From a virus: a stretch of DNA of 64,000 bases. Below, one piece after another: positions 15,740 to 64,000 of this stretch (positions are counted from its first letter, which is position 1; each line of letters starts with the position of its first letter). The notes under the pieces are model-generated. The model worked only from the letters and a program-made list of their open reading frames with translations, made no database searches and was not told the origin of the DNA. The DNA lies in the IMG/VR virus record IMGVR_UViG_3300035661_000043, positions 1 to 64,000 of that record; one strand, written 5' to 3'. A program made the position numbers and the translations under genes.

Positions 15740-17902
15740 ATGTCTAATCCAATATTCAATTTTTTCGGGTTCTAGATCAAACGATCTGAAGAGGAGAAAC
15801 AGCTTCCTAAATCAGTTGTTGCTCCAAATCTAGCAGATGGTTCTATTGTTATTAATCAGAACTTGGGAACTGGTATTCTCGGAGACTCTTATACTCTTGC
15901 ATTTGACCCAGACGGTCAGATCACAAATGAGATCGATCTCGTTCGTAGATATAGAGAATTGTGCAGATATCCAGAAGTAGCAGAAGCTATTGAAGATATC
16001 GTTAACGAAGCAGTGATTATCGAAGGTGAAGATAAACCTGTTGAAATCAATCTTGAGTATCTTAAGATCTCAGATTCAATCAAGAAAAAGATCACAGAAG
16101 AATTTGCCAAGATTCTTTCACTGATGAACTTCAATGAAGAAGGGTATGATCTATTTGAAAGATGGTATGTGGATGGGAAGATCTTTTTCCATATATTACT
16201 GGATGAAAATCATTCAAATGGTATCAAAGAGCTAAGATTAATTGACCCACGTAAGATCAAGAAGATCAAGAATGTGATCAAAGAGAAATTAGCAAGTGGT
16301 GTAGAGATTGTCAGGGAAGTACAAGAATATTACATATACAATGACAAGGGTATTGCAGGCGGCACTAGTCAGGGTGTAAGATTAAGTGTTGATTCTGTTG
16401 TGTACTGCCATTCAGGTCTGATTGATTCACAAACTGGATTAGTTCAATCATATTTGCATAAAGCAATCAAACCTGCTAACCAATTAAAAATGTTGGAAGA
16501 AGCGGTTATTATCTACAGATATACTCGTGCACCAGAGCGTAGGGTATTCTATATTGATGTTGGAAATTTACCAAAAGGTAAAGCTGAGCAATACGTCAGT
16601 GATATGATGAATAAGTTCAAGAACAAGTTATCATATGATGCTGTTACTGGGGAATTGGCAGATTCTAAGAGACACTTGTGTTTGGATATGAGCACACAAG
16701 TACCATTGCTTGATGGCAGAACACTGTCTATTTCCGAGATTGCTGCAGAGATGGATCAATCAGATAAACCTCTATGGGCATATTCATGTGATCCAGTGAC
16801 TGGCAAATTTGTGCCGGGTAAAATTACCTGGGCCGGTGTATCTAGACCAAATGCACAAGTCATGCGTATTACTCTTGATAATGGAAAAACCATTACTTGC
16901 ACCCCAGATCACAAATTTCCAGTTTGGGACAAGGGATTCGTAAAAGCTGAAGATCTATATATTGGCGAATCAATGATCCCGCATTATACTCGTTGGAAGG
17001 AAATTGCTAAGGGTTCTTCCAAGAATTACGAACAAATTTTCGAGAATGATACTGGAGAATGGAAATTCACACATCAAGCAGTATCCGATTGGAAAGATTG
17101 TATTACATCGCGCCGTTCATCTACATCATGTGTTTCTTCTGATAACAGTGCAGATAGACAAATTGATTCTCTAATGTTCCGTAACCATAAAATTGCAAAA
17201 ATTGAGTGGTTAGAAGAAACAATGGACACTGGATGTCTGACTATTGACGGAGATGAAGAATTCCACAATTATCATACATTCGCTCTATCTGCCGGAATTT
17301 ACACCCAGAACTAGATGATGGAAGATTTCTGGATGCCTAGGCGCGGAGATAAATCAACAGAAATCACGACACTTCCAGGGGGTCAGGGTCTCGGTCAGTT
17401 GGATGATTTGGATTATTTCAAGGATAAACTATATCGTTCTTTAAATGTACCTAAATCTAGATTCGTTCCAGATAGTGGTTTCTCTATTGGTAGATCAGAT
17501 ACTATTTCTAGGGATGAAGTAAAATTTGCTAAATTTGTTGGCAAATTGCGCAACAAATTCGGAAATATCTTTTTAGATATATTGCGCGTTCAATTGATTT
17601 CTAAGGGTATTTTCTCTAGTAAAGATTGGGAACAATTTAAAGAGAAGATTAAAGTCATTTACGCTAAAGATAACTTCTTTGCCGAATTAAAAGAAAATGA
17701 AGTTCTTACTACTAGACTTTAGACTGCATTGCAATTGGATCCATTTGTCGGCAAATATGTAAGCAAAGAATACATCCAAAGAAAAGTACTAAGATTCACA
17801 GATGATGAAATAAAAGAAATAAATACACAAATGGAAGCCGAGATCAAATCTGGTGATATTACTGACCCAGTAGCAATGATGCAAGAACCACCTCAGGCAT
17901 AA
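15740..17902 (+). CDS. gp20: Portal protein gp20 with a cis intein
   Basis: RAPERRVFYIDVGNLPK, EDFWMPRR and TEITTLPGG motifs; 3 TAG. Confidence 0.95.
16679..17311 (+). mobile_element. Mini-intein (211 aa) in gp20
   Basis: Starts CLDMST, has block B TCTPDHKF, ends GIYTQN; the +1 codon is TAG. Confidence 0.9.
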
Positions 17903-50035: not shown

Positions 50036-50111
50036 GGGACTATAGTTTAATGGTTAAAACATCACCCCTTTAAGGTGTAAGCTCTCGGTTCGAATCCGAG
50101 TAGTCCTACCA
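50036..50111 (+). tRNA. tRNA-Lys(TTT)
   Basis: CC-TTT-AA loop, GGTTCGAATCC, CCA. Confidence 0.8.
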
Positions 50112-53209: not shown

Positions 53210-53575
53210 TGTGCGATATCTCTATCGCACATCAGAATGACTGTATGGATCTTCGGATCTGTGAAGTTGAAAGAAATGTGTTCAGGAAGCGAGTTCGAGT
53301 CTCGCCAGCTCCACCAGAAGTATATCATCTGATGCATTCTGTGTGCTGTATATATTGCAAGTATTCAGTATACTTCTGATGGGGCTGTATTGGTTTCGAC
53401 TGGGCAATGAGTATGGAGATGGACAGTTTGGCAACGCAGAAGCCATTATGATTGGGTCTTCCCGGTTGAAGAAGCAAACAAAAGTAAAAGCAAACGCTGA
53501 TACATTCCTGATGGCGGCTTGATCGCCCAGTGAGGATTCCTTGGGTGTTCCTTATTACCAAAACACCCATCCTAA
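53210..53575 (+). ncRNA. ssrA: Circularly permuted (two-piece) tmRNA
   Basis: T arm and CAGCTCCACCA (ending 53316) precede GGGGCTGTATTGGTTTCGAC (53381); tag ANADTFLMAA-TGA at 53490-53522; outer ends approximate. Confidence 0.9.
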
Positions 53576-53580
53576 TATAC

Positions 53581-53668
53581 GGAGAGTGGACCTGCAGGGT
53601 GCAGGCGCTGTTTGCTAAACAGTTGGTGTCAGGAATGGCATTCCGGTCGGGACGGACTCTCTCCTCCA
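53581..53668 (+). tRNA. tRNA-Ser(GCT)
   Basis: GGAGAG acceptor, TT-GCT-AA loop, long variable arm, U73, CCA. Confidence 0.75.
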
Positions 53669-57519: not shown

Positions 57520-57609
57520 GGAAGTTTGGCAGAGTGGTTTATTGCCGCGGACTCTAAATCCGCTGAATCAGAGATGGTTCCACGAGTTCGAATCTCGTAA
57601 CTTCCTCCA
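57520..57609 (+). tRNA. Amber-decoding tRNA (anticodon CTA) with a serine-type body
   Basis: GGAAGTT/AACTTCC-T-CCA acceptor, GCGGA-CTCTAAA-TCCGC anticodon arm, long variable arm GAATCA-GAGA-TGGTTC, T arm GTTCGAATC. Confidence 0.93.
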
Positions 57610-61553: not shown

Positions 61554-63107
61554 ATGAAAAAGACGATTGAACAAAAATACCGTAAGCTGGATGAAATTTC
61601 TCACGTACTTTTGAGACCTGGAAGATATCTAGGTAGTATTACTCCGCACACCGCTGATGCATGGACTGTGACTGAATCTGGTACTATGCAAAAGAGGAGT
61701 CTGACATGGACTCCTGCTTTGCTTAAGATCTTTGATGAGATCATTTCTAACTCTGTTGACTTTAGCAAGACAGAAGAAGGAAAGCATCTGGATACTATCA
61801 AGGTGGATTTGAACCGGATAACTGGTGAGATCACAGTATACGATAATGGCGGTATCGCTGTGATCAAACACAGTGAATATGATCAGTATATCCCGGAGAT
61901 GATCTTTGAATTGCGCTCTGGATCAAATTTCGATGATTCGGAAGATAGCATGGCAACCGGGCAGAATGGAGAAGGCTCAGCCCTAACAGCTATTTTCTCC
62001 TCTGAGTTCGAAGTACAGACTGCAGATGGATCTAATCAATTCATCCAGACTCGCACCGACAATTCAAGGAAGATTTCCGACCCTAAAGTCAAGACATCAG
62101 ATAAACACTTCACGAAGATTCGATTCATTCCGGACTATGAAAAGTTCGGTCTTGATGGTCTTGATACCGATAATGAAGCTAGATTGATTAAGCGTGTATA
62201 TGATGTAGCTGGCTGCAACCCAAAACTGAATGTATATCTCAATGGGAAGCGGATCAAGATTGCCTCATTCTCTGACTACGTGAAATTGTATACATCTGAT
62301 TTTGTGCACGAAGAAAACGATCACTGGCATGTTGCATTGGCTGCTTCGGAAGATGGATTCAATCATGTATCATTTGTGAATGGTACAGAAACTACCACCG
62401 GGGGGAATCATATCAGCTACATCGCAGATCAGATCACGAACAAGCTGCGCGACTTCTTCAAAAAGAAACACAAAGTAGATGTGAAGCCAGGAGATATTCG
62501 GAATCACATGCTCCTGTTTATTGATGCCGGTATTATCAGACCAAGATATTCAAGCCAGACTAAAGAAGATCTGATTACAGAATCAAAGAACTTTGGTACT
62601 AGTATTGAAATTTCAGATAAGTTCATCCAAAAGGTTATCAAATCAAATATCGTTCAGTCTGTATTGGATTGGGTAAATGCAAAAGCTGCAGCAGCTGAAG
62701 CAGCGGAACTTCGCAAGAAATCAAAGGACATTGACAAGGCGAACCTACGAAAGATCAGCAAGTTTACTGATGCCACACAGAAAGAAAATCGTGATCAATG
62801 CATGATTTTCATTGCCGAGGGTGAATCTGCTGCAAGTTCTATTCTGTCTGCGCGTACAGGCAATATCGGTTGTTACCCATTGAAGGGTAAGCCGATTAAC
62901 GCTATGGCTGCTACAACTAAGGATCTTCTTGATAATAAAGAATTCACTGAGCTGATGACCGTCACAGGTCTGAAAATTGGTGAGAAAGTTAAAATAGAAG
63001 TAGATTCACTATATGAAATCTATATTGATGATATCTCATATATTGTGTCTACAGAAGATATCATTATTCACAAAGATAAACAATATATTGTAAAAGATTT
63101 AATCTGA
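61554..63107 (+). CDS. gp39: Topoisomerase II ATPase subunit gp39
   Basis: HVLLRPG, DEIISNSVD, GQNGEG, EGESA and PLKGK motifs; lacks the DxD part of TOPRIM. Confidence 0.95.
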   Translation: MKKTIEQKYRKLDEISHVLLRPGRYLGSITPHTADAWTVTESGTMQKRSLTWTPALLKIFDEIISNSVDFSKTEEGKHLDTIKVDLNRITGEITVYDNGGIAVIKHSEYDQYIPEMIFELRSGSNFDDSEDSMATGQNGEGSALTAIFSSEFEVQTADGSNQFIQTRTDNSRKISDPKVKTSDKHFTKIRFIPDYEKFGLDGLDTDNEARLIKRVYDVAGCNPKLNVYLNGKRIKIASFSDYVKLYTSDFVHEENDHWHVALAASEDGFNHVSFVNGTETTTGGNHISYIADQITNKLRDFFKKKHKVDVKPGDIRNHMLLFIDAGIIRPRYSSQTKEDLITESKNFGTSIEISDKFIQKVIKSNIVQSVLDWVNAKAAAAEAAELRKKSKDIDKANLRKISKFTDATQKENRDQCMIFIAEGESAASSILSARTGNIGCYPLKGKPINAMAATTKDLLDNKEFTELMTVTGLKIGEKVKIEVDSLYEIYIDDISYIVSTEDIIIHKDKQYIVKDLI

Positions 63108-63155
63108 AGTCAGACAATTTGGCTATATGTTTGTCAGAAATCGAAAGGATTGGAA

Positions 63156-63719
63156 ATGGAAATTAAAGTAAAAAAAATTGATGTCAATCATCAAAACATG
63201 ACAAAATATCTTGGTGATAATAATGTTATCAGAAAGACTAATCTTAGAAGCAGTCTGCGCTTCGGCAAATTGGTTATGTGCGCAGACGCAGACGCAGATG
63301 GTTAGCTTCGGCTAACTAATCTATAAACTAATTTAAGAAAGAATATTGGCTCACATATTTGTGGCTTAATTATGGCAGGGCTGAAGAAATTTTGGCCCGA
63401 ATTATTTTCTCTAGGTGCAGTATATCGATTCCAGACACCGATTATGAAAGTTATGATCGGCAAGGATGAAAAATATTTCTATTCACTTGATGAATTCTCT
63501 GTTTGGGAAAAGACTAATACTAAATCTTTCAAGACTCGGTATCTGAAAGGTCTTGGCTCTTCTACCGCGGAAGACTTCCGAGGTTATTTTGCTAACATGG
63601 ATAACAATCTAGTGCAGATTACGTTACAATCTACTGATGATCTAGACATTGTTGATCTGGTATTTGGTAAGGAAACAGGAGCAGCTGATGCTCGTAAAGT
63701 CTGGTTGGATTTGGAGTAA
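63156..63719 (+). CDS. gp60: Topoisomerase II subunit gp60 with a 48-nt coding gap (63303-63350)
   Basis: ADADADG, then the gap, then SHICGL..YLKGLGS; the gap contains TAG, a UUCG hairpin and TAA. Confidence 0.88.
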
Positions 63720-63722
63720 TCT

Positions 63723-64000
63723 ATGGCAAAAATGAATATTAAAGACTTTTTCGGCACTGCCGTGCGCGACTACTCCATTTATGCATGCGAACGTGCTATT
63801 CCATCTGGCTGTGATGGTCTCAAGCCAAGTCAGCGCAAGGTGTTGTATGGAATGACAAAAGAATTTCCTACTCAGGAAGTGAAAGTTTCCATCTGCGCGG
63901 CTACTATCCAAGCAGTGACCGCATATCATCATGGTTCTTTGGAAGCAGTAGTCACAGGAATGGCACAGAACTTTGTTGGTTCTAATAATGTCCCATTGTT
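63723..64000 (+). CDS. gp52: Topoisomerase II subunit gp52, 3'-truncated by the window
   Basis: RAIPS..DGLKPSQRKVLY and AYHHGS motifs. Confidence 0.92.
   Translation, partial: MAKMNIKDFFGTAVRDYSIYACERAIPSGCDGLKPSQRKVLYGMTKEFPTQEVKVSICAATIQAVTAYHHGSLEAVVTGMAQNFVGSNNVPL

Follow-up and report, generated by a model that had tools for sequence, protein, structure and literature searches.

Long-range translational bypassing is among the most extreme departures from linear decoding, and to our knowledge every natural case seems to do no more than make good the harm caused by a selfish insert. In gene 60 of phage T4, a 50-nt translational bypass belongs to a MobA element (Huang 1988 and Bonocora 2011, as summarised in bioRxiv 10.1101/2022.08.31.505936 and PMC5462505). 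Manning and Atkins described dozens of homologous cassettes as parts of a MobA-type mobile element (bioRxiv 10.1101/2022.08.31.505936). [quoted passage not shown] The take-off and landing codons of the family are matched or wobble-matched, with GGU/GGC in S16, MGS1, MGS12 and others, and the A-site codon is UAG, UGA or a rare sense codon. A mini Shine-Dalgarno (GAG, GGG, GGA or AGG) is located 5-7 nt before the landing codon in A/U-rich surroundings, and the conserved nascent-peptide residues correspond to Y16, Q19, V22, R24, Y33, M39 and T40 of T4. The endonuclease is of the MobA, GIY-YIG or VSR type and can be lost or swapped; endonuclease-free members have spacers of 20-39 nt, and some lineages lose parts of the element. 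Recoded hosts and suppressor tRNAs are not mentioned in the preprint.

In the present study, we analysed a topoisomerase locus of a T4-like phage (Portal_T4) from microbial mats. The phage is represented by a 79.8-kb fragment (G000, CheckV completeness ~45%), and the window denotes its first 64,000 nt, the whole stretch of DNA analysed. Using Pfam domains and ORFs, type II topoisomerase genes were located on the + strand at 61554-64000. The large-subunit frame was found to be single and continuous, with three stops (TGA at 63105, TAG at 63303 and TAA at 63324). No match to the locus was obtained by megablast and blastn against 50,697 phage records. The features are listed below.

57520-57609, + strand: tRNA gene of 90 nt (anticodon CUA) whose long variable arm is of the Ser type, called by ARAGORN; likely decoder of sense TAG.
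61554-63107, + strand: ORF1, N-terminal part of the topoisomerase II large subunit, T4 gp39-like, 517 aa, ending in TGA and free of in-frame TAG (Pfam DNA_gyraseB and HATPase_c).
62994-63104, + strand: CTE of 37 aa, IEVDSLYEIY...YIVKDLI, from the inserted element; missing in continuous homologues and in the uninterrupted relative L054.
63108-63155, + strand: spacer between ORF1 and ORF2, 48 nt, with an AAAGGA Shine-Dalgarno and without a homing endonuclease gene.
63156-63254, + strand: unique part of the NTE, 33 aa, candidate nascent-peptide signal (..MTKYLGDNNVIRKTN..), similar to T4 gp60.
63255-63302, + strand: homR, 16 codons (LRFGKLVMCADADADG), which replaces the parental TOPRIM segment and ends at the take-off codon; 75% DNA identity to L054, the aligned protein being the same.
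63296-63322, + strand: predicted take-off stem-loop with 11 pairs, one bulge and a UUCG loop; its core (63300-63317) contains the take-off GGT and the TAG.
63300-63302, + strand: putative take-off codon GGT (Gly49), the same conserved DxDxDG Gly as in T4.
63303-63305, + strand: TAG, which would occupy the A site when the ribosome takes off; a standard-code stop and, from sequence and recoding evidence, most likely Ser in the code of the phage.
63303-63350, + strand: putative coding gap, 48 nt, 71% A+T, exactly missing from L054.
63339-63341, + strand: AAG, aligned with the GAG mini Shine-Dalgarno of T4 and separated from the landing codon by 6 nt.
63348-63350, + strand: putative landing codon GGC; like its synonym GGT, it is decoded by tRNA-Gly(GCC).
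63351-63719, + strand: resumed ORF2, SHICGL...WLDLE, 122 aa, ending in TAA (Pfam TOPRIM_C, 5.8e-22).
63723-64000, + strand: start of the gp52-like topoisomerase II small-subunit gene (ORF 63723-65033 in G000, 436 aa in the whole record; Pfam DNA_topoisoIV), free of TAG.

The preliminary description of this DNA reported a take-off GGT at codon 49 (63300) with TAG next to it in a hairpin, an in-frame TAA, a GGC landing codon and resumption at TCA CAT ATT, and all of these elements were present in the sequence. The hairpin reads GGTTAGC-TTCG-GCTAACT (63300-63317). The 27-nt stem-loop around it (63296-63322) had a folding energy of -10.6 kcal/mol and a z-score of -4.8, and none of 200 shuffled sequences folded as well. 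The gap is in frame, its 48 nt being equal to 16 codons. It was observed that TAA occurs in every frame of the gap (63324-63326 in frame; 63313 and 63334; 63317 and 63329); all five gap stops other than the take-off TAG are TAA. The tail of the gap is 87% A+T, and a UAAG is located at 63334-63337, 10 nt upstream of the landing codon. Contigs of three runs, namely the possible source run and two more (microbial mat or sediment), carried the gap without any difference, indicating that it is not an assembly artefact, and no contig in four runs joined across it. An Rfam search with the gap and hairpin returned chance-level matches only, with no family at threshold, and a promoter and terminator scan gave no sign of a separate transcription unit. 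A further stem-loop of 9 pairs (GGGCTGAAG..TTTTGGCCC) was observed at 63378-63398, 28 nt past the landing codon, and was also picked up by the terminator scan. T4 has a 3' stem-loop, a barrier to forward slippage, at the matching position, and the corresponding stretch of L054 paired more poorly by eye.

Subsequently, the locus was compared with T4 gene 60. The best tblastn match of the 49-aa N-terminal peptide of ORF2 among the 50,697 phage records was the N terminus of T4 gp60. The window NTE showed 38% identity to gp60 residues 1-46 (pairwise E = 5e-8) and had the motifs K.KID, M.KY, NNV.R and DAD.DG in common with it, which bears out the earlier remark that the upstream peptide resembles the gp60 signal. 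The two gaps could be aligned base for base, sharing TAG C(C)TTCG(G)GCTA, CTATA and a TAAG..ATT before the landing codon. As in T4, the insert is located in the same gene and at the same codon, after the Gly of the TOPRIM DxDxDG motif, and a UAG follows the take-off Gly codon in a stem closed by C(UUCG)G. The A/U-rich tail, in which a purine triplet precedes the landing codon by 6 nt, the split into ORF1 and ORF2 with a CTE and an NTE, and the KY..NNV.R nascent-peptide motif are likewise common to both. At the conserved nascent-peptide positions, Y18, V24, R26 and F36 of the window peptide were kept, whereas Q19 of T4 was replaced by Asp, M39 by Cys and T40 by Ala. The window differs from T4 in its gap length (48 nt against 50), in its codon pair (GGU/GGC against GGA/GGA), in having one G-C pair fewer at the stem tip, in having AAG for the GAG of T4, and in lacking mobA, which T4 has between ORF1 and ORF2. 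In addition, the in-frame back-up stop is TAA in the window but TAG in T4, and the phage carrying the window cassette appears to read UAG as Ser. At the level of sequence, homology to the T4 gene 60 system was found for all parts of the cassette.

To search for related cassettes, IMG/VR was scanned with the pattern GAYGGNTAGCTTCGGCTA. Three further phages (G001, G002 and G003) were found to have the same arrangement in the same motif. The five cassettes (gap length, take-off / landing codons, stem energy) are as follows.

Window (G000): 48 nt, GGT / GGC, -10.6 kcal/mol.
T4 gene 60: 50 nt, GGA / GGA, -14.7 kcal/mol.
G001: 49 nt, GGT / GGC, -18.2 kcal/mol.
G002: 47 nt, GGA / GGA, -13.7 kcal/mol.
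G003: 44 nt, GGG / GGG, -13.4 kcal/mol.

The seven core stem pairs were 100% paired in all five cassettes, and the wobble base of the take-off codon covaried with its partner (A-U, U-A, G-C). The take-off stem of the window was the weakest of the five (-10.6 compared with -13.4 to -18.2 kcal/mol). Since the gaps of the sister cassettes (49 nt in G001, 47 nt in G002 and 44 nt in G003) do not preserve the frame, translation across the gap cannot be the general mechanism. We also considered whether the in-frame length of 48 nt is meaningful and rejected this idea because the other cassettes have gaps of 44, 47, 49 and 50 nt; the in-frame length looks like chance. Collectively, the comparisons supported true homology between the window locus and the bypass cassette of T4 gene 60.

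The locus was then compared with the family described in the preprint. It has the TOPRIM insert site, the split with a CTE and an NTE, a codon pair read by one tRNA, a TAG after the take-off codon and a UUCG-capped take-off stem-loop. The triplet AAG is outside the reported GAG, GGG, GGA and AGG and is weaker than those. The endonuclease is lacking, the ORF1-ORF2 spacer having only 48 nt; because endonuclease-free forms are published as members, an endonuclease is not required for membership. By eye, the CTE resembled that of MGS3 (..YIVNENDI..KEYLVKDLIS; preprint Table S2), and no alignment between the window CTE and the T4 CTE was obtained by BLASTP. An NTE variant on another contig (P0002), likewise of 49 aa, was 86% identical; in the P0002 scans of metagenome and viral contigs, its own contig was not among the matches listed. 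The take-off hairpin of MGS11 (clade 11, Lake Kivu sediment) is identical to that of the window (GAT GGT TAG C TTCG GCTAAC), its Topo2L backbone is similar (..KKKHKVDVKPGD..), and its source is also environmental rather than enteric. Unlike the window, MGS11 has retained an endonuclease of the VSR type between its ORFs, and its landing codon is GGT. The window sequence itself was not found in the tables or supplements of the preprint. Judged by its sequence, the locus is a new member of the catalogued MobA-element bypass family. The GGT/GGC pair and the gap length other than 50 nt, which the preliminary description had presented as unusual, fall within the published range, and its statement that natural bypass is very rare was too strong in view of the dozens of homologous cases (bioRxiv 10.1101/2022.08.31.505936).

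An empty site was identified in the metagenome contig OGWO01002850.1 (L054), which reads GAT GGT and TCA CAT without interruption and also lacks the ~250-nt CTE/NTE insert. Its DNA identity to the window is ~86% after the gap and ~78% before it. Compared with two continuous homologues, L001 from IMG/VR (74% aa identity to ORF1) and gp485 of Ralstonia phage RsoM2USA, the window has two insertions. The first amounts to ~85 codons and comprises the CTE, the stop, the new start and the NTE, whereas the second is exactly 16 codons between DADADG and SHI. The parental sequence replaced in the window amounts to 63 nt. The empty site of L054 indicated that the 48 nt (63303-63350) are an insert with both borders defined to the base, in agreement with the in-frame gap proposed earlier. 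The fold of the stem-loop, the 16 codons missing from continuous homologues, the exact empty site and the alignment with the T4 gap together show that the arrangement did not arise by chance. After the gap, the window and L054 differ by 40 synonymous and 8 non-synonymous codon changes in 123 codons, which speaks for a translated gene and demonstrates that the sequence downstream is conserved. Several other features were observed in the relatives. The ORF after the large-subunit gene of L054 (~880-1400) starts with MKIEYTYLIEFKPTGQLYFGSKYG.. and looks like a GIY-YIG homing endonuclease rather than a gp52 homologue, and the first ~40 nt of this contig look like sequencing adapter. In L055 (Ga0114977_10013091, 1220-1800), an NTE-bearing ORF2 (MAIKIKQKNITPTKEQLKEYYK..) reads through DADLDG-YHI with no gap, so that the gene is split and the extension is kept with no bypass cassette, as in clades 7, 8 and 20 of the preprint. 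In L011 (3757-4335), the large-subunit gene matched in two pieces in different frames, ~580 nt apart near residue 430; this appears to be a different insertion, for which an intron, an intein and an endonuclease are candidates.

The preliminary description had further taken TAG to be recoded and decodable as Ser, and our results confirmed the recoding. The phage has 117 in-frame TAGs. The long-ORF cover increased from 0.50 to 0.74 with TAG as sense, and the gain was smaller when TAA or TGA was removed. Reading through TAG gave full-length family matches for the SbcC-like gene (9 TAG), the DnaB-like gene (6), the portal gene (3), sheath, terminase and two helicases. The 60 ORFs traced in the window all end in TAA or TGA (34 in TAA), and none ends in TAG. 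At the TAG positions of the SbcC-like gene, a 96% relative has S and S, and a 51% relative has T, T, G, S, G, D, D, S and S. The portal gene (15740-17902) contains an intein at 16700-17320 (Pfam Intein_splicing, residues 323-508), and the +1 residue of this intein is encoded by TAG (..GIYTQN-TAG-MMEDFW). For splicing, the residue after an intein must be Cys, Ser or Thr; thus, maturation of the portal would depend on TAG being read as one of these. Together with the Ser-type tRNA(CUA), these results showed that the phage uses TAG as a sense codon, the amino acid being most likely Ser.

The TAG codons were unevenly distributed. A TAG-using block (window 1-47000), which contains the structural and many replication genes, has 94 TAGs in 13,989 codons (0.67%). 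An almost TAG-free block (G000 56700-79755), which includes the topoisomerase genes, has 14 in 5,758 codons, mostly in three ORFs, and a tRNA cluster lies between the two. Besides the take-off codon, the topoisomerase genes (1124 codons) contain no TAG, and 7.6 would be expected from the rate in the 1-47 kb block (P ~5e-4). The base after sense TAGs is A in 46% and C in 13% of cases; the C after the take-off TAG is dictated by the hairpin. Like stop-codon-recoded phages with a suppressor tRNA (TAG or TGA reassigned), this phage has in-frame TAGs in numerous essential genes, encodes its own tRNA(CUA), contains a gene block devoid of TAG and terminates none of its genes with this codon; it differs in that the amino acid appears to be Ser. 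In G001, G002 and G003, almost no gain in ORF cover was obtained with TAG as sense, and the helicase of G002 has no internal stop, indicating that these phages follow the standard code. For these three same-hairpin phages, we rejected the notion that a phage with the cassette is, as a rule, recoded. It was also observed that G002 (IMGVR_UViG_3300042566_001780, 292 kb) carries a 77-nt tRNA(CUA) at 141916-141992 in addition to its gene-60-type cassette; the standard code already gives it a high ORF cover, so that a suppressor tRNA is present without genome-wide recoding.

From the above comparisons, we infer that ribosomes hop over the gap. The locus is probably a MobA-type remnant with a ribosomal hop over 48 nt, which would be needed for the full-length subunit under either code. 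Window 62994-63350 would be what is left of the element in the large-subunit gene after loss of the endonuclease, namely the CTE, the stop, the new start, the NTE and the coding gap. In the proposed mechanism, ribosomes would translate ORF2 up to Gly49 (GGU) and stall with the UAG in the A site, within the UUCG-capped hairpin. The peptidyl-tRNA-Gly would be retained, slide over the 48 nt and re-pair at GGC, and translation would resume at UCA. The hop would recreate the DADADG-SHICGL junction of the uninterrupted L054, which agrees with the earlier suggestion that it restores the TOPRIM motif (DADADG-SHI). The predicted product contains the junction peptide ..ADADADGSHICGL.., and the full-length ORF2 product would have ~171 aa (~19 kDa). 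As the phage most likely reads UAG as Ser, the A-site codon at take-off would be a sense codon in its own code. If Ser-tRNA(CUA) were accepted there, translation would run into the TAA six codons on and give a dead-end 56-aa peptide ending in ..DG-S-LRLTNL. Because TAA occurs in all three frames of the gap and the topoisomerase genes contain no other TAG, the full-length product should need the hop whichever code applies.

Three readings dispense with the hop. The gene may exist in three pieces, the part after the gap being initiated separately (at ATG 63372 or ATT 63345), or it may be decaying. An ORF at 63372-63719 is present, the element no longer has its endonuclease, and partial loss of the element is known from some lineages. 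However, ATG 63372 has no Shine-Dalgarno upstream, and separate initiation would lose SHICGLI and leave the acidic DxDxD motif on a 49-aa peptide. Moreover, none of the T4-type signals has been lost, three runs carry an identical locus, and synonymous changes prevail after the gap, so that we consider this reading improbable. The 48 nt might instead be translated as a 16-residue insertion, with the TAG read by tRNA(CUA) and the TAA by a tRNA at 50036-50111 that ARAGORN calls as 'UUA'. Although the gap is in frame and ARAGORN calls both tRNAs, TAA is the terminator of 34 of the 60 traced genes, and the anticodon stem of the 'UUA' tRNA contains two mismatches, a better pairing being obtained with a UUU loop. 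Such an insertion would also sit within the TOPRIM motif, and the sister cassettes are out of frame; this reading is very improbable. Excision of the 48 nt before translation, whether from the mRNA or from a fraction of the DNA population, is a formal alternative that found no direct support and is hardly credible, since contigs joined across the gap were absent from all four runs, and we know of no bacterial or phage intron type as small as 48 nt. The gap of T4 gene 60 stays in the mRNA (PMC5462505).

If the ribosome does hop, the hop may be an ordinary one that never meets the suppressor, the topoisomerase block being translated before tRNA(CUA) accumulates, so that UAG acts as a plain host stop. 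We tentatively regard this as a realistic possibility. It is favoured by the absence of other in-frame TAGs from the topoisomerase genes and of TAG from the gene ends, and the TAG-free early block corresponds to the layout that is reportedly usual in stop-codon-recoded phages. On the other hand, the gp41-like helicase (6 TAG) and the SbcC/gp46-like protein (9 TAG) are products of replication genes, and in T4 the genes of these types share a temporal class with genes 39, 52 and 60. The TAG-rich replication genes indicate that the suppressor tRNA must be active while replication proteins are made. The TAG-free topoisomerase block suggests that the suppressor rarely gets a chance at the take-off codon, whereas the TAG-rich replication genes suggest that the suppressor and topoisomerase synthesis overlap in time. 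The hop could also act as a sensor of the code switch of the phage: early on, UAG would be unreadable and the hop would proceed, and later the accumulating Ser-tRNA(CUA) would compete at the weak hairpin, divert ribosomes to the TAA at 63324 and bring synthesis down. This reading is unlikely in our judgement.

In T4, the UAG is protected against RF1, near-cognate tRNAs and read-through by the hairpin in the A site together with the nascent peptide and a locked peptidyl-transferase centre, and one G-C pair less at the stem tip results in more termination and read-through (PMC5462505). Such shielding implies that the suppressor may have little effect on the hop and may not compete at all. The stem tip of the window has one G-C pair fewer than that of T4, but so do those of the standard-code sisters, and as the same hairpin occurs in standard-code phages, nothing in it is demonstrably adapted to recoding. 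The suppressor tRNA could conceivably lower the yield of the full-length subunit. Clade 5 cassettes (Acinetobacter phage) have the rare sense codon AGG in the A site, which is decoded slowly, so that the A-site codon is sense, as it would be in the window. Their slowness comes from a rare host tRNA, whereas the window codon is a host stop decoded by a tRNA that the phage brings. What is new about the locus is this context, in which the take-off UAG appears to be a reassigned codon with a phage-borne decoder; no published case of a reassigned codon doubling as a bypass take-off signal was found. With such an A-site codon, the locus is a candidate for regulated bypassing. According to a 2016 review written by leading authors of the field, a bypass with a regulatory role would broaden the interest of the phenomenon, and codons read by a regulated tRNA are the best lead (PMC5009743). 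The locus would be such a configuration in the classic gene 60 system, with the phage itself supplying the A-site tRNA, and would also be a natural test of hairpin and nascent-peptide shielding against a fully cognate tRNA, beyond RF1. If the suppressor has no effect, the locus would simply be one more member of the catalogued family; if the hop does sense the code switch, it would represent a naturally occurring bypass that serves regulation and is set by a tRNA of the phage.

Two further RNA genes were observed in the window. At 50036-50111, the tRNA to which ARAGORN assigns the anticodon UUA (ochre suppressor) lies directly after a tRNA-Lys(CUU); when its anticodon-stem pairing is shifted by one base, four good pairs are formed and the loop becomes CCUUUAA (anticodon UUU, Lys, with C at position 33). 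At 53224-53613, in the tRNA region of the phage, ARAGORN reported a permuted tmRNA-like gene with the tag peptide ANADTFLMAA.
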